Shown piece after piece: positions 2,127 through 35,562 of a DNA stretch of 64,000 nucleotides. The stretch covers positions 661,584-725,583 of the forward strand of contig OZ242043.1 of NCBI GenBank assembly GCA_965205185.1. The letters run 5' to 3'. A model generated the notes under the pieces. It was not told the DNA's origin. It searched no databases and saw only the letters and a program-made list of their open reading frames with translations. How positions within the stretch are numbered: position 1 is the stretch's first letter; each line of letters begins with the position of its first letter. Source of the stretch: Dehalococcoidia bacterium (GTDB taxonomy: Bacteria > Chloroflexota > Dehalococcoidia > Lucifugimonadales > UBA3495). Position numbers and translations under genes: made by a program.

Positions 2127-4946
2127 ATGCCGATGAACGCCGCCAACGCCGCCCCCCGCCGCAAGCTGATCGAGGTCGACTTGCCCCTGGACGTGATCAA
2201 CGCCGAGTCCGCCCGGGAAAAGTCGATCCGCCACGGCCACCCCTCTACCTTGCACTTGTGGTGGGCGCGGCGCCCCCTGGCCGCCTGCCGCGCCGTGATT
2301 TTCGCCAGCCTGGTAGACGACCCGGCCGATTGCCCGGAGGAGTTTGCCGATCTGGACGCCCAGCGCGCCGAGCGGCAGCGGCTGCACGATTTAATCCAGC
2401 GGCTGGTCAAGTGGGAAAACGGCAACGACGCCCCCCTGCTGGCCGCGGCCCGCTACGAAATCGCCCGCTCCATCGCCCGCGGCCGCGGCGATACCGCCCC
2501 CGCCGATCCCGCCGCAGTGCTGGAGTATCTTAACCGCGAAGCCCAGCCGATTTACGACCCCTTTTGCGGCGGCGGCTCCATTCCGCTGGAGGCGCAGCGC
2601 CTCGGCCTCCGCGCCATCGGCTCCGACCTTAACCCGGTGGCGGTGCTGATTACCAAGGCGCTGATCGAGCTGCCCCCCAAGTTCGCCCACCGCCCCCCGG
2701 TCAACCCCGACGCCGACCCGATGGGCTTGACCGTGGGCCGGGGGCGCAACGCCCAACAAATCCCGTGGCGCGGCGCCGCCGGCTTGGCCGACGATGTCCG
2801 CTACTACGGGCGCAAGATGCGGGAATGGGCGTATCAGCGCATCGGCCACCTCTACCCCCAAGCCCCCCTGCCCGGCGGCGGCGGCGCCACGGTCATCGCC
2901 TGGCTCTGGGCCCGCACCGTGCCTTGCCCCAACCCCGCCTGCGGCGTGGCTATGCCCTTGATGCGGAACTGGCAACTCTCTACCAAGAAAAACAATCTGC
3001 ACTGGATGAAACCCATCATTGACCGGGACAGTCAAAGCGTCTCATTCGTTGTGCAGAACCACAACCGGGACATCCCTAAAAGCGAAACAGTGAACCGGAA
3101 TAGCGCCACCTGCATCGCCTGCAATGGCGCCGTTACCCTGGAATACGTCCGCCAGCAGGCCCGCGGCGGCAATATGAGCGAAATTATGACCTGCGTCGTC
3201 GCCAAAGGCGACCGAAATCGAATTTTTATGTCAATAACCCCGGAAACAAAAAAAATCTTCTCAAGGGCGGCGGCCCCGTGGCGGCCCCAGCAACCTATGC
3301 CCACGACCGCTTACAAGGTAAGCGGTCGTGGGTATGGAATTACCCATTGGCATCAGCTATTCAATGAACGACAGTTGACCGCCTTAACCACTTTCAGCGA
3401 TACGTTGGCGGAAGTGAAACAACTGGTAATACACGATGGCGCGGCCGAGGAATATGCCAACGCGGTCGTTACCTACCTTGCTCTGGCTGTAAGCAAAATG
3501 GCGGATTCCAACAGCAGCTTTTCAACCTACCACTTGCCGCGTGAAAACGTGCGAAGCGTTTTCGCCCGGCAAGCGATCCCAATGGTTTGGGACTATGCTG
3601 AGGGCAATCCTTTCGCCGACGCGGCGGGGACTTGGAATCTGGTATTGGACAAAATCGTTAAAGTTTTGGAATACCTGCCGGATACCAACAACCACGGCCA
3701 AGTCTATCAAGCCGACGCCGCCACAACAATCCACGCCAACAATGGCCCGGTTATCGTTACCGATCCGCCCTATTACGACAATATCAGCTACGCCGAACTT
3801 TCCGACTTTTTCTATATATGGTTGCGCCCGCTACTACGGGAAATCTACCCCGATCTGTTTTCCGGTATAATGGTTCCCATCCAAGAGGAAATGATCGCCG
3901 CGCCGCGCTTTGAGAACGCCGAGGAACGTTTCGAGTCGCTGTTGGGGCAGTCGTTGCGTCTGATACGGGAACGGTGCAGCCCGGAGTTTCCGTCGTCCAT
4001 TTTCTACGCCTACAAGCAGCAGGAACAGGAACGGGATGGCGTAACTTCAACCGGCTGGGAAACGATGCTCACCGCGCTGATCAATGCCGGATTTCAGATT
4101 GTCGGCACTTGGCCGATGCGTACCGAAATGTCTAATAGGGCCAATGCCGTGGCCGCCAACACGTTGGCATCATCGGTCGTCCTGGTTTGCCGCCCGCGGC
4201 CAGAAAACGCGCCGGTTGCCAACCGGGGGGAATTCATCGCGGCGCTGGAACGGGAAATGCCGCCGAAGCTGGATCAGTTGACCCGGGAGGCGCACATCGC
4301 CCCGGTGGATTTGCGCCAAGCCGCCATCGGGATGGGGATGGCGGTCTATTCCCGCTACGGGAGCGTGGCTACGCTATCCGGCGAACCCGTGACGGTGCGC
4401 CAGGCGCTGATGGCGATTAACGATGCGGTAGACGCCTATCTGCGCCAGCAGGCCGGGGAATTGGATTCCGAAAGCCGTTTCTGTCTGGACTGGCTGCAAA
4501 CCCACCCCAAGGGGCAAGGCGATTACGGCACCGCCCTAAACTTGGCCCTCGCCTACAATTTGTCCATCGACGACCGGCTGGCGCAAACCCACCGGCTGCT
4601 CCAGGCCCGACAAGGAACTGTATCGTTATACGGGCTGGACGACTATCACACCGACCGCGCCTATCCGCCGGCGGGCGAGGAAATCACGGCATGGGAATGC
4701 TGCCTGCGGATGGCATGGCAGATGCAGATCGGGGATGACCGGGGCGGGGTAGCGGGCTGCGTGCCGGCGGCCCGCCGCGCCGCCGGCCGGTTGGATAGCG
4801 TCGAGCGCCTAGCCCGCATCCTCTACGACCACCACAACTCCCGCCACGAATCCCAACTAGCGGTAGCGTTCAACAACGTAGTAACGGCGTGGCCGGAAAT
4901 CACCCGCGAAACCGCCCGCCCAGAATCCGGCCGGCTGCTAGAGTAA
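2127..4946 (+). CDS. DUF1156-family N6-adenine DNA methyltransferase
   Basis: 939 aa. The N-terminal block KLIEVDLPLDVINAESAREKSIRHGHPSTLHLWWARRPLAA is typical of DUF1156. Catalytic motif IV is DPPY (TDPPYYDNISYAELSDFFYIWL). Confidence 0.85.
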   Translation: MPMNAANAAPRRKLIEVDLPLDVINAESAREKSIRHGHPSTLHLWWARRPLAACRAVIFASLVDDPADCPEEFADLDAQRAERQRLHDLIQRLVKWENGNDAPLLAAARYEIARSIARGRGDTAPADPAAVLEYLNREAQPIYDPFCGGGSIPLEAQRLGLRAIGSDLNPVAVLITKALIELPPKFAHRPPVNPDADPMGLTVGRGRNAQQIPWRGAAGLADDVRYYGRKMREWAYQRIGHLYPQAPLPGGGGATVIAWLWARTVPCPNPACGVAMPLMRNWQLSTKKNNLHWMKPIIDRDSQSVSFVVQNHNRDIPKSETVNRNSATCIACNGAVTLEYVRQQARGGNMSEIMTCVVAKGDRNRIFMSITPETKKIFSRAAAPWRPQQPMPTTAYKVSGRGYGITHWHQLFNERQLTALTTFSDTLAEVKQLVIHDGAAEEYANAVVTYLALAVSKMADSNSSFSTYHLPRENVRSVFARQAIPMVWDYAEGNPFADAAGTWNLVLDKIVKVLEYLPDTNNHGQVYQADAATTIHANNGPVIVTDPPYYDNISYAELSDFFYIWLRPLLREIYPDLFSGIMVPIQEEMIAAPRFENAEERFESLLGQSLRLIRERCSPEFPSSIFYAYKQQEQERDGVTSTGWETMLTALINAGFQIVGTWPMRTEMSNRANAVAANTLASSVVLVCRPRPENAPVANRGEFIAALEREMPPKLDQLTREAHIAPVDLRQAAIGMGMAVYSRYGSVATLSGEPVTVRQALMAINDAVDAYLRQQAGELDSESRFCLDWLQTHPKGQGDYGTALNLALAYNLSIDDRLAQTHRLLQARQGTVSLYGLDDYHTDRAYPPAGEEITAWECCLRMAWQMQIGDDRGGVAGCVPAARRAAGRLDSVERLARILYDHHNSRHESQLAVAFNNVVTAWPEITRETARPESGRLLE

Positions 4947-4972
4947 CCACCCCGCCGGGGAACGGAGCGGAT

Positions 4973-5338
4973 ATGTACGGCGAACCCACCTACCCCACCG
5001 CCCGCCACCGTCTGGAACACGGGCGGGAAAGCTACCGCCGCGCCACGGTGCGGGCAATGGCAACCGACGGCTGGGGCGTATACGCCCTATGGGTCGGCGA
5101 CTACGAATGCCTCTACATCGGCAAATCGGCGGAGGGCGAAAGCGTCAAAACCCGCCTGATATCGCATTTGTCCTACCAAGAGCGCCGCCGCAACCGCAAG
5201 CTATACGATGCGCTATACCTGAACCGCGACCACGTAGAGTTCGCCATCTGCCTAACCAACAGCCCAGAGTGGGCCACCGAGCTGGAGCAGCGCCTAATCA
5301 AGCACTACCAGCCGGAGTGCAACAACCTGCTGAAGTGA
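4973..5338 (+). CDS. small GIY-YIG domain protein (putative nuclease)
   Basis: ATG at 4973 (alternative ATG at 5057) in the 4889..5338 frame. GVYALWV..LYIGKS followed by RLISH fits the GIY-YIG pattern. Co-directional with the methylase, with a 26-nt gap. Confidence 0.55.
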   Translation: MYGEPTYPTARHRLEHGRESYRRATVRAMATDGWGVYALWVGDYECLYIGKSAEGESVKTRLISHLSYQERRRNRKLYDALYLNRDHVEFAICLTNSPEWATELEQRLIKHYQPECNNLLK

Positions 5339-5368: not shown

Positions 5369-5685
5369 ACCCCGCCCGATCTTATCCCCCGCCCGATCTT
5401 ATCCCCCGCCCGATCTTATCCCCCGCCCGATCTTATCCCCCGCCCGATCTTATCCCCCGCCCGATCTTATCCCCCGCCCGATCTTATCCCCCGCCCGATC
5501 TTATCCCCCGCCCGATCTTATCCCCCGCCCGATCTTATCCCCCGCCCGATCTTATCCCCCGCCCGATCTTATCCCCCGCCCGATCTTATCCCCCGCCCGA
5601 TCTTATCCCCCGCCCGATCTTATCCCCCGCCCGATCTTATCCCCGCCCCCCGATCATATCCCCCCCGGATCTTATCCCCTCCCCC
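5369..5685. repeat. 17-bp tandem array: 16 perfect + 2 degenerate copies of CCCGCCCGATCTTATCC
   Basis: GATC recurs at exact 17-bp steps from 5378 to 5633, with degenerate copies at 5652 and 5668. The period is not a multiple of 3. Track ORFs 5089..5862 and 5363..5701 merely translate the repeat. Confidence 0.95.
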
Positions 5686-6258
5686 TCCGGGGGAGGGTTA
5701 GGGTGGGGGCGTCCCCCCAACTACCCCGCAGAGGACACGCATTCATCCTTCGACAAGCTCAGGATGAATGCGGGGGCGCCGGCTTTAGCGGGGGCGCCGG
5801 GGGCGGCCGGTGTTAGCGGGGGCGCCGGTGTTAGCGGGGGCGCCGGGGGCGGCCGGTGTTAGCGGGGGCGCCGGCTTTAGCGGGGGCGCCGGGGGCAATG
5901 CCAACCCCGCCCCCCGGATCTTATCCCCGCCCCAACTACCCCAACCCCGAAATGCCACCGAAAACCAAAAAATCCCCTCCCCCTCCGGGGGAGGGTTAGG
6001 GTGGGGGCGTCCCCCCCCAAGCCCCGCAGATGACGCGCATTCATCCTGAGCTTGAGGACATTCATTCATCCTGAGCTTGTCGAAGGATGAATGCGGGGGC
6101 GCCGGGGGGCGGGCGGTTTTAGCGGAGGCGCCGGGGGGCAATGCCAACCCCGCGCCCCGACTTATCCCCGCCCCAACTACCCCAACCCCGAAATGCCACC
6201 GAAAACCAAAAATCCCCTCCCCCTCCGGGGGAGGGTTAGGGTGGGGGCGTCCCCCCTT
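5686..6258. repeat. cluster of dispersed palindromic repeat units (family 1 CCCCTCCCC..GGGGAGGG + TTAGGGTGGGGG; family 2 CATCCTTCGACAAGCTCAGGATG)
   Basis: Family 1 copies lie at about 5676-5716, 5975-6012 and 6213-6250. Family 2 copies lie at 5741-5768 and 6037-6095. A ~125-bp direct duplication spans 5893-6020 / 6133-6255, with GGGGGCGCCGG..TTAGC sub-repeats between the copies. Confidence 0.85.
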
Positions 6259-33128: not shown

Positions 33129-33638
33129 TCACTCTTTGAGGTTGAGGAATAGGATGATGGGGCGGTGGGTCATAAAGGCGTAGTCGAAGGCTTGGGCGAT
33201 GGCGCGGGGCCAAGCGTCGAGGGGGACGCGGTAGTCGAGGACGAAGGCTTTGATGCGCATGGTTTCGACCATTTGGACGGCCATTTCGGAGAATTGGAAG
33301 TTGGCGGCGTTGAATTCGCCGAACCCGCCGCGGCGGACGGCTAGTAGTAGCATGGGGGCGTGGTAGGCCATGGCGTAGGTGGTGAGGGCGCCGATGCTGT
33401 TGCCTAGGCCGGTGTCCTGGTAGAACATTACGCTGCGTTTGCCGGTGAGGGCGAGGCCGGAGGCGATGCCGATGCCTTCCTCCTCGCGGGCGACGGGGAA
33501 GGCGCGGACGTTGGGGGCCTGGTCGAAGTGGGCGATGACCGGGGCGCCGAAGCTGTCGGGGATATGGATGAAGTATTCGATTTTGGCGGTTTCCAGGCCC
33601 TGGATTACGGCGTTGCAGGCGTCTTGGGGGTAGGCCAT
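33129..33638 (-). CDS. ThDP-dependent decarboxylase alpha subunit
   Basis: 169 aa from ATG 33638, with an N-terminal pyrimidine-binding domain (REEEGIGIASGLALTGKRSVMFYQDTGLGN). The track ORF extension to 34253 runs through rnpB and is an artefact. Confidence 0.8.
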   Translation of the reverse strand: MAYPQDACNAVIQGLETAKIEYFIHIPDSFGAPVIAHFDQAPNVRAFPVAREEEGIGIASGLALTGKRSVMFYQDTGLGNSIGALTTYAMAYHAPMLLLAVRRGGFGEFNAANFQFSEMAVQMVETMRIKAFVLDYRVPLDAWPRAIAQAFDYAFMTHRPIILFLNLKE

Positions 33639-33679
33639 TAGGGGTGTTCCTGTTGGGGGGTTGGGTTGGGGGTTTTGGG

Positions 33680-34220
33680 GCGGGAGGCCGGGCGGGCCTG
33701 TAAGCCGGGTTCTGTTCCCGCCATCCTTCGACAAGCTCAGGATGAGTGCGTTCTCGGTCGAGGGCGTGCTCAGGATGAGTACGTTCCTCAATGATGGGTA
33801 TGTTTTCAGTATTGAGGGCGTGCTCGGATGAGTTTGTCGGGGGATGGCGGGCGGTGACCATCTATCTAGCCCCCCGGCGTGGCCGGGGCCCGCGGTTGCG
33901 GGACGGCGTTGCCGCCGTGGTCGAGCGGCCAACCCGGGGACGAGCCGGGCGCTCATAGTCCCTCTATTCGGCCTTGCTCCGGGTGGGGTTTGGCCGCCGG
34001 TGCGTCGCCGCAACGGCCGGGCGCTCTTACCGCCCGATTTCACCCTTGCCCCGATTTCCGTGATGGAACTGGGGCGGTGTGTTTCTGCGCCACTTTCCGT
34101 CTCCTGCGCCGGACTGATCCATTGCGGGAGCCTGGGAGTTACCCAGCACCTTGCCCGGCGGAGCCCGGACTTTCCTCCCCGACGGGGTCGGGGCGGCCAC
34201 CCGGCCCGCTTGGCCTCCGC
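33680..34220 (-). ncRNA. rnpB: RNase P RNA, bacterial type A, with a 135-nt extra helix
   Basis: On the minus strand: the P4 5' strand GGAGGAAAGTCCGGGCTCC (34166-34184), the P4 3' strand ACAGAACCCGGCTTACA (33699-33715), and GGTAAGAGCGC and CCCGGAGCAAGGCC blocks. P1 pairs GCGGAGGCC..GCGGGCC with GGCCCGC..GGCCTCC, and P2 pairs GGTGGCC with GGTCACC. A promoter lies directly upstream. Confidence 0.9.
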
Positions 34221-34266: not shown

Positions 34267-34896
34267 TTACCAGATGGTTTGCAGGTTCAGGGTGAAGCCG
34301 GGGAGTTCGGGGTCGGCGGATATGGTGGTGGGGGCGTTTAGTATGGTTATGGGGCGGTGGGGGCGGTAGATGTGTATTTGGCGGTTTTGGGGGTCGATCA
34401 GCCAGCCGAGGCGGGCGCCGTTGGTTAGGTATTCGGCCATTTTTGCCTGGATTATGGGTAGGTCGTCGGAGGGGGAGCGGAGTTCGATTACGAAGTCGGG
34501 GCAGATGGGGGCGAATTTGGCTTGCTGGTCGGGGGTTAGGGTTTGCCAGCGGGATAGCAGTACCCAGGATGCGTCGGGGGCGCGGACGGCTCCGTTGGGG
34601 AGGGTGAATCCGGTGCTGGAATCGAAGGATATGCCGGTTCCGTCGCGGTAGGACCAGTGGGTTAGTTGGTAGTTCAGATCGCTGTTGCGGCGGCCGGTTG
34701 TTGAACCTGTTGGGGGCATAATGATCAACTCTCTGTCGGCGGTTAGCTCCAGGCGGAGGGCGTGGTTGTCGGCGCATAGCTGGAGGAATTGGGCGGGGGT
34801 TATTTTGACGGCGCGGAGGTTTAGCGCCAGGCGGTCGGGCGGTGTTGCTGGCGCTGTTTCTGGTGGGGCTATGGTTAGTGGTTGGGCGGTGGTCAT
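34267..34896 (-). CDS. Uma2-family (DUF820) endonuclease, copy 1
   Basis: 209 aa containing ELIIMPPTG..NS, APDASW and PDFVIELRSPSD, which gives the PD-(D/E)XK D..ExR pattern typical of Uma2. Confidence 0.85.
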   Translation of the reverse strand: MTTAQPLTIAPPETAPATPPDRLALNLRAVKITPAQFLQLCADNHALRLELTADRELIIMPPTGSTTGRRNSDLNYQLTHWSYRDGTGISFDSSTGFTLPNGAVRAPDASWVLLSRWQTLTPDQQAKFAPICPDFVIELRSPSDDLPIIQAKMAEYLTNGARLGWLIDPQNRQIHIYRPHRPITILNAPTTISADPELPGFTLNLQTIW

Positions 34897-34929: not shown

Positions 34930-35562
34930 TTACCAGATGGTTTGCAGGTTCAGGGTGAAGCCGGGGAGTTCGGGGTCGGCGGATATGGTGGTGGGGGCGT
35001 TCAGTATGGTTATAGGTTGGTGAGGGCGGTAGATGTATACTTGGCGGTTTTGGGGGTCGATCAGCCAGCCGAGGCGGGCGCCGTTGTCGATGTATTCGGC
35101 CATTTTTGTTTGGATTATGGGTAGGTCGTCGGAGGGGGAGCGGAGTTCGATTACGAAGTCGGGGCAGATGGGGGCGAATTTGGCTTGCTGGTCGGGGGTT
35201 AGGGTTTGCCAGCGGGATAGCAGTAGCCAGGAGGCGTCGGGGGCGCGGACGGCGCCGTTGGGGAGGGTGAAGGCGCCGTTGGAATCGAAGGCTATGCCGG
35301 TTCCGTCGAGGTCGGACCAGTTGGCTAGTTGCTGATTCAGTTTGCTGTTGCGGTTGCTGGTTGTTAATCCTGTTGGGGGCATGATGATCAACTCGCTGTC
35401 GGCGGTTAGCTCCAGGCGTAGGATGTCGTTGTCGGCGCATAGTTGGAGGAATTGGTCGGGGGTTATTTTGACGGCGCGGAGGTTTAGCGCCAGGCGGTCG
35501 GGCGGCGTTGCTGTTGGCGTGGGTTTTGTGGGGGTTTTGACGGGTAGGTTGGCGGTGGTCAT
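34930..35562 (-). CDS. Uma2-family (DUF820) endonuclease, copy 2 (tandem paralogue)
   Basis: 210 aa, about 80% identical by eye to copy 1, with the same motifs. Confidence 0.85.
   Translation of the reverse strand: MTTANLPVKTPTKPTPTATPPDRLALNLRAVKITPDQFLQLCADNDILRLELTADSELIIMPPTGLTTSNRNSKLNQQLANWSDLDGTGIAFDSNGAFTLPNGAVRAPDASWLLLSRWQTLTPDQQAKFAPICPDFVIELRSPSDDLPIIQTKMAEYIDNGARLGWLIDPQNRQVYIYRPHQPITILNAPTTISADPELPGFTLNLQTIW

Follow-up and report, generated by a model that had tools for sequence, protein, structure and literature searches.

Rfam found a single family in the window, i.e. the whole 64,000-nt stretch of DNA from a soil Dehalococcoidia bacterium that was analysed: the bacterial type-A RNase P RNA. 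Its gene, rnpB, lies on the minus strand and was matched by the covariance model RF00010 with 170.6 bits (gathering score 100) over the whole model, positions 1–367. The P4 strands GGAAAGUCCGG and ACAGAACCCGGCUUA and the other conserved regions were aligned at high posterior probability, in agreement with a preliminary description of the locus in which rnpB was a normal type A RNA. Only one copy of rnpB was found upon a covariance-model search of its own 3.99-Mb genome. The rnpA gene was intact, with an open frame and a match to PF00825 (E = 1.8e-22), and a profile search of the genome for PIN_9, which we take to be the family containing the protein-only HARP enzyme, gave no match. Since this rnpB is the sole copy, rnpA is intact, PIN_9 gave no match and the conserved regions are well aligned, the RNA must, as judged from its sequence, be functional.

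The gene following rnpB encodes a TPP-dependent decarboxylase alpha subunit. It is co-oriented and its start codon lies 46 nt past the rnpB end (window 33638–33685). No obvious terminator was noted in this gap and both genes may be co-transcribed. Directly upstream of rnpB are two tandem paralogous genes of 209–210 aa on the minus strand (window 34267–34896 and 34930–35562), which by eye resemble Uma2/DUF820-type putative endonucleases.

The features of rnpB and of its insert are as follows, in window coordinates and in the order of the RNA.

33685–34212, minus strand: rnpB, bacterial type-A RNase P RNA, 528 nt (RF00010 covariance-model match)
33717–33851, minus strand: expanded helix P19, 135 nt (137 nt with two joiner bases), a self-contained branched arm with 44 predicted base pairs (covariance-model alignment, folds, homologous short P19 in relatives)
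33842–33851, minus strand: 5' strand of the closing stem, CCCGCCAUCC, in which CCCGCC is the basal P19 stem common to relatives and AUCC the first repeat arm (fold, comparison)
33829–33846, minus strand: diverged inverted copy of the unit, CATCCccCGACAAaCTCA, which pairs with the complete unit and extends the closing stem (23-nt inverted repeat, 87% complementary)
33778–33830, minus strand: partial units 2 and 3, CATCC-GAGCACGCCCTC… and CATCA-TTGAGG… (fold, sequence)
33786–33818, minus strand: inner hairpin CCCUCAAU…AUUGAGG within partial units 2 and 3 (fold)
33745–33777, minus strand: partial unit 4, CATCC-TGAGCACGCCCTCGACCGAGAACGCACT, consisting of 5' arm, truncated loop and spacer with a 33-nt period (unique to rnpB)
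33722–33744, minus strand: sole complete canonical hairpin unit, CATCC-TGAGCTTGTCGAA-GGATG (191 exact genomic copies of the 23-mer)
33717–33726, minus strand: 3' strand of the closing stem, GGAUGGCGGG (fold)

Position and folding of the extra sequence

One large unaligned block was present in the covariance-model alignment, between model positions 335 and 336, which separate the P2 3' strand from the P4 3' strand. It is flanked by the P2 3' strand GAUGGUCACC and the P4 3' strand ACAGAACCCGGCUUA and covers 135 nt (33717–33851), so the placement of the extra sequence between P2 and P4 in the preliminary description was confirmed. The P2/P4 junction is the defined position of helix P19, and RNAs without P19 carry a 4-nt linker there (PMC9945441). 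Every type B RNA has this helix, whereas among type A RNAs it is sporadic and found, for example, in the PVC group (PMC9945441); it is among the helices normally left unaligned because their sequence is not conserved (PMC4264200). By alignment and fold, the block is a hairpin between the P2 3' strand and the P4 3' strand, and is thus P19. It shares with a typical P19 this position, the replacement of the 4-nt linker, a variable sequence and an outward-pointing direction. A typical P19 measures about 15–40 nt, whereas the one described here has 135 nt, is branched and is built of a genomic repeat.

In the RNA the insert reads CCCGCCAUCC, 115 nt and GGAUGGCGGG. In the fold of the whole 528-nt RNA the two flanks form the 10-bp closing stem that had been proposed around about 115 nt, each of the ten pairs having a probability of at least 0.99. 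The basal P19 stem is kept as CCCGCC/GGCGGG. The base of the arm is predicted to consist of 10 bp, a 2×2 internal loop, 6 bp, a bulge and 4 bp. The isolated block folded at −55.2 kcal/mol (z = −6.6 against 200 shuffles). In the fold of the whole RNA 88 insert positions were paired (44 pairs), with all partners inside the insert and 0 outside.

The insert is made up of four partial units and one complete unit. Five CATC(C/A) arms start at insert positions 6, 22, 56, 75 and 108, of which only the last opens a complete hairpin. Three repeat units had been described earlier. Three direct copies of ACUCAUCC(U)GAGC are indeed present, but only the 3'-most (CATCCTGAGCTTGTCGAAGGATG) is complete, the other two (…GAGCACGCCCTC…) occur nowhere else in the genome, and the arms number five in all. 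The proposed derivation from a genomic repeat family holds, as the complete unit CATCCTGAGCTTGTCGAAGGATG has 191 exact genomic copies. The 23-nt inverted repeat arises because the 5' end of the insert is a diverged inverted copy of the unit. No other copy of the inner 94 nt, and thus no donor locus, was found anywhere in the genome, which suggests growth of the array on site rather than its insertion as a whole.

The hairpin repeat in the genome and in P19 of relatives

The repeat is the most frequent small hairpin repeat of this genome. Its 17-nt core was found in 351 copies at up to two mismatches and in 410 copies at up to three in the whole genome, against 0 in the control; twelve copies lie in the 64-kb window. 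Arrays of the family are one-sided. The 5' arm recurs within 115 nt upstream of 41% of the genomic hairpins, mostly with periods of 16–27 nt, and the 3' arm recurs downstream of only 8%. Such arrays have the form (5' arm + truncated loop + spacer)n and close with one full hairpin. The rnpB insert has this design, which matches more than 130 other genomic loci.

Conserved primer sites placed the rRNA genes of this genome at unlinked positions and apparently in single copy (16S near 299.3–300.8 kb, 23S near 3.645 Mb and 5S near 2.520 Mb); no copy of the hairpin repeat was found in any of the three. The hairpins show a 177:233 strand split; a reading of this split by replication strand was dropped, as the origin and terminus derived from cumulative GC skew (40 kb and 3.13 Mb) were implausible. 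The hairpin translates to PELVEG, FDKLR and LSLSKDE peptides, which are presumably common in hypothetical proteins, and neither the motif nor these peptides turned up in a search of the literature. A second abundant repeat family, CCCCACCCTAACCCTCCCCC, often forms GGGGAGGG…CCCTCCCC palindromes and has about 412 genomic copies at up to two mismatches. It is located in the window at 5689, 5987, 6227, 12496, 12627, 17132, 23003, 24968, 29940 and 45012, and often adjoins the hairpin studied here.

For comparison, rnpB was collected from 38 other species of the same genus (those with a detected rnpB) and from order-level relatives. A P19 hairpin was present in all 38 species and in five order-level relatives. 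The usual P19 of the genus has a 6–7-bp stem and a 3–5-nt loop, as in the hairpin GUCCCGAUUCUUUCGGGAU of one relative. The sizes of P19 were distributed as follows.

17–20 nt: short hairpin, e.g. GUCCCGA-UUCU-UUCGGGAU, 25 species
32–33 nt: P19 of other sequence, 3 species
37–39 nt: P19 with one copy of CCUGAGCUUGUCGAAGG, 9 species
57 nt: P19 with one partial and one complete unit (1.5 units), 1 species (G062)
137 nt including two joiner bases: P19 of this genome, 1 species

Compensatory changes in the P19 stem were seen in the genus alignment at pair 2 (T-A/C-G), pair 4 (C-G/T-A) and pair 7 (A-T/C-G). Since a hairpin is found here in every same-genus relative with a detected rnpB and in five order-level relatives, and since its stem bears compensatory changes, the repeat opened no new site by the catalytic core. 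What it colonised, and then lengthened, is the tip of a pre-existing outward-pointing hairpin, P19. The preliminary description had a repeat invading the ribozyme next to its catalytic core; the repeat origin stands, and the new insertion site does not. By the RF00010 alignment and the P19 of the relatives, the site is a known variable helix and is conserved in the lineage. As nine related species have a one-unit P19, what sets this genome apart is only the expansion and not the initial arrival of the repeat. The rnpB-core tree is poorly resolved and gives no firm count of repeat gains in P19, so that a figure of at least 5 gains or losses is soft.

Among the best 150 full-length matches listed from 300 other genomes of the class, rnpB spans about 338–461 nt. 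Helix P18 is also elaborated in the genus, with two extra side hairpins and a 31-nt insert relative to RF00010; the homologous part lies at 33860–33905 of the window. The repeat motif (ctgagcctgtcgaaggg) occurs in one P18 side hairpin of at least two relatives, L047 (= G060) and L043/L067 (= G006), hence P19 is not the sole site in rnpB that was colonised.

Taken as a whole, we put at about 0.78 the probability that the 135 nt represent a P19 helix which a hairpin repeat of the genome has enlarged. In the ground state P19 would be an optional outward hairpin between the P2 and P4 3' strands. Its tip would then have been taken by the small palindromic repeat CATCC-TGAGCTTGTCGAA-GGATG, which has a gene-flanking arrangement like that of Ssn-type hairpin repeats (see below). 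Growth in place may have followed by one-sided tandem duplication of the 5' half of the unit, as is typical of the family, leading to four partial units and one complete unit. The transcribed insert would form an independent arm and, as a neutral extension, remain part of the mature ribozyme, with P1–P4 and the conserved regions working as usual.

Tolerance as a peripheral helix had been one of two outcomes considered before and is the better supported, as the arm pairs only with itself and is located at P19. Retention is the most likely fate since the arm folds alone, at a site where other bacteria have hairpins of varied size; the predicted arm would thus quite probably persist as a peripheral extension. 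It looks like a tolerated add-on and not like a break in the catalytic core. The other outcome is that of an intervening sequence, in which the arm would be cut out post-transcriptionally, for instance by RNase III at the ~20-bp interrupted basal rod. Excision would give a religated-looking RNA of ~400 nt or, which is more plausible, a ribozyme in two pieces that P1–P4 pairing keeps together. In the predicted fold the interrupted rod spans about two helical turns, and RNase III cuts such stems in 23S rRNA intervening sequences and so excises them. Like the arm, these sequences add a stem-loop to the tip of a helix in an essential structural RNA. Nothing, however, points to an excision of the arm, and the repeat is absent from the rRNA genes of this genome. 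Moreover, the basal stem is interrupted and not perfect, and the one-unit and 1.5-unit versions of the relatives are far too short for RNase III and surely retained. Nor are we aware of a bacterial RNase P RNA that naturally occurs in fragments split at P19, which also counts against excision. Removal of the arm is considered unlikely.

The sequence could also be an artefact, either a long-read assembly error in a repeat-rich MAG or a decayed rnpB pseudogene. The genome, a MAG in one contig, has an estimated contamination of 6%, and the RF00010 score of its rnpB is the lowest in the genus (170 versus 190–232 bits). An exact look-up of the neighbouring TPP-decarboxylase subunit, for a second assembly, returned no other contig. 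Against an artefact or decay, the insert is coherent, with compensated stems and the array design seen at more than 130 other loci, and G062 has an intermediate P19 of 57 nt. The well-aligned conserved regions of the sole rnpB, the intact rnpA and the lack of a HARP-type match in the genome argue in the same direction, and an error or pseudogene is hardly credible. Fast covariance-model filters cut the rnpB match to model positions 20–304. Inserts of this kind can therefore make rnpB appear partial or missing in annotations.

An expanded P19 as proposed here means that an essential ribozyme apparently carries a length increase of one-third at a single site, and would confirm P19 as permissive for natural or engineered insertions. 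The P19 series of about 18, 38, 57 and 137 nt illustrates the stepwise building of RNA expansion segments by a repeat family. Variability of P19 as such is textbook knowledge, and the expansion of a peripheral rnpB helix by repeats has a precedent. STRR repeats were reportedly found by Vioque in 1997 inside rnpB of heterocyst-forming cyanobacteria, as tandem heptamers in helix P12 of the specificity domain. In both cases a short genome-wide repeat enlarges a peripheral helix of an essential ribozyme gene without destroying it. The likeness is one of analogy only: in contrast to heptamers in P12, the repeat described here is a 23-nt palindromic hairpin with periods of 16–55 nt and one-sided partial duplications, located in P19 of the catalytic domain. 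New are the size and one-sided build of the P19 array and the graded size series within one genus.

The repeat also resembles REP, BIME and REPIN elements, which are abundant short palindromes in clusters, presumably handled as single-stranded hairpins. It differs from the REP/RAYT system in that the conserved part is the loop and not a 5' GTAG box, that the arrays are one-sided and that no Y1/RAYT transposase gene was found in the genome (PF01797, no match).

The motif in P19 of other phyla

A pattern scan with one genome per species was performed for CTGAGCTTG located 8–38 nt upstream of the P4 3' strand. It returned 23 records, 17 of which contain the full 15-mer CTGAGCTTGTCGAAG. Besides the genus, matches were found, among others, in Chitinophagaceae (including the cultured genera Niabella and Ginsengibacter), Prolixibacteraceae, Flavobacteriales, Ca. 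Aquilonibacter, Bdellovibrionales, Sphingomonas, Dojkabacteria and Moraniibacteriota. When 12 of the motif loci were checked with Rfam, an RNase P RNA gene was recovered at 11 of them; ten of these genes are full length, and one is truncated by the end of its contig. The Dojkabacteria locus was the one that Rfam did not confirm. Lineages with the 15-nt motif in the P19 of their rnpB include Bacteroidota, Sphingomonas, Eremiobacterota, Bdellovibrionales and Moraniibacteriota. Several species carry it within both Chitinophagaceae and Prolixibacteraceae, and the cultured Niabella and Ginsengibacter share the same motif in their P19. In nine of 11 scanned genomes the motif had 4–63 copies, with 1 and 0 in the other two (reversed control 0–1). 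To our knowledge, it is new that a single 15-nt hairpin recurs in P19 of several phyla and that it is linked to Ssn-like nuclease genes.

The motif was found in sense orientation in 23 matches from the genome collection, versus one antisense match from the metagenome collection, a bias that is uncontrolled since the pattern lengths also differed. The only antisense motif found inside a P19 of rnpB lies on the metagenome contig Ga0308175_100000291 (L084:2143–2191).

This distribution bears on the idea that the hairpin CUGAGCUUGUCGAAG, in one orientation, is a functional RNA module selected in P19 as a protein-binding, structural or stabilising element, of which the array would add copies. The same 15-nt motif in P19 of distant lineages, and in several species within families, agrees with such a role, and so does the ratio of 23 sense to 1 antisense match, obtained in different collections with different pattern lengths. 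However, 28 of 39 genus members have no unit in P19, and the partial units described here have no conserved loop. Occupancy of P19 furthermore tracks genomic copy number, as passive colonisation predicts. At up to one mismatch the 15-mer has 335 copies in this genome, the highest number among 40 genus genomes (1–276 in the others). A unit was found in P19 of seven of the 11 genomes with at least 100 copies, versus four of the 28 with fewer (Fisher p = 0.004, without correction for phylogeny), and genomes with a unit in P19 have more copies (Mann-Whitney p = 0.006, likewise uncorrected). A selected module is considered very unlikely.

Single-domain GIY-YIG genes flanked by the hairpin

In Ssn systems the ssnA gene is placed between two NTS hairpins, in a hairpin-gene-hairpin layout (Chenal et al. 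2025, PMC11893778). In three Bacteroidota genomes (L073–L075) the motif directly flanks a single-domain GIY-YIG gene of 92–103 aa. Close homologues of this gene were found in four species of the genus (L078–L081; E = 1e-37 to 1e-40), with a hairpin within 200 nt downstream in all four and, in three, also some 50 nt ahead of the start codon. A degraded copy of the GIY-YIG gene in a fifth genus relative (G013) is also flanked by hairpins. The distribution of the gene in the genus is patchy. The Ssn-like proteins, predicted nucleases, match PF01541, and their nearest solved structures are those of UPF0213.

The repeat is a multicopy hairpin of 20–50 nt, like the NTS/SRM elements of Ssn (PMC11893778), and the hairpin-gene-hairpin layout around single-domain GIY-YIG genes is shared by the relatives and the Bacteroidota. 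Copies of the repeat in Bacteroidota have an oriented 5' box, GTCAT, comparable to CGTCAT of the NTS. The loop sequence differs from that of NTS/SRM, and the published SRM consensus HGTCWYN(0-2)YYVSBRHN(0-5)WNVSBRGN(0-2)RNCYNB overlapped none of the 410 hairpins of this genome and had no match at the hairpins beside the ssn-like genes. Unlike Ssn systems, this genome has the most hairpins in the genus, yet no Ssn-like gene was found in it by PF01541, tblastn or profile search. RNase P is not mentioned in the Ssn study (PMC11893778). For a widespread hairpin motif, the Ssn-like GIY-YIG nuclease, whose genes are flanked in two phyla, is a candidate enzyme partner.

P19 might even be a preferred, orientation-specific landing site for the cross-phylum hairpin CUGAGCUUGUCGAAG of Ssn-type ssDNA nucleases. 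Entry could take place via the single-stranded non-template strand of the heavily transcribed rnpB, or the hairpin could be retained as an RNA hairpin that is bound or used. If so, the rnpB arrays would record ongoing nuclease-driven hairpin duplication inside an essential ribozyme. This is conceivable but rather doubtful.

Matches to PF01541 in this genome were limited to UvrC and two GIY-YIG genes of restriction type beside methylases. One of these pairs is located in the window at 2127–5338 and consists of a DNA methylase-like gene of 939 aa and, after it, a small GIY-YIG gene that is of restriction type and not of Ssn type; the other methylase and GIY-YIG pair (L071) is found at 2.42 Mb of the genome. 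In the window, the GIY-YIG gene is closely followed by a tandem array (5370–5679) of 18.2 copies of the 17-nt CCCCGCCCGATCTTATC with 96% matches, with further short arrays and hairpin copies beyond it up to about 6100.
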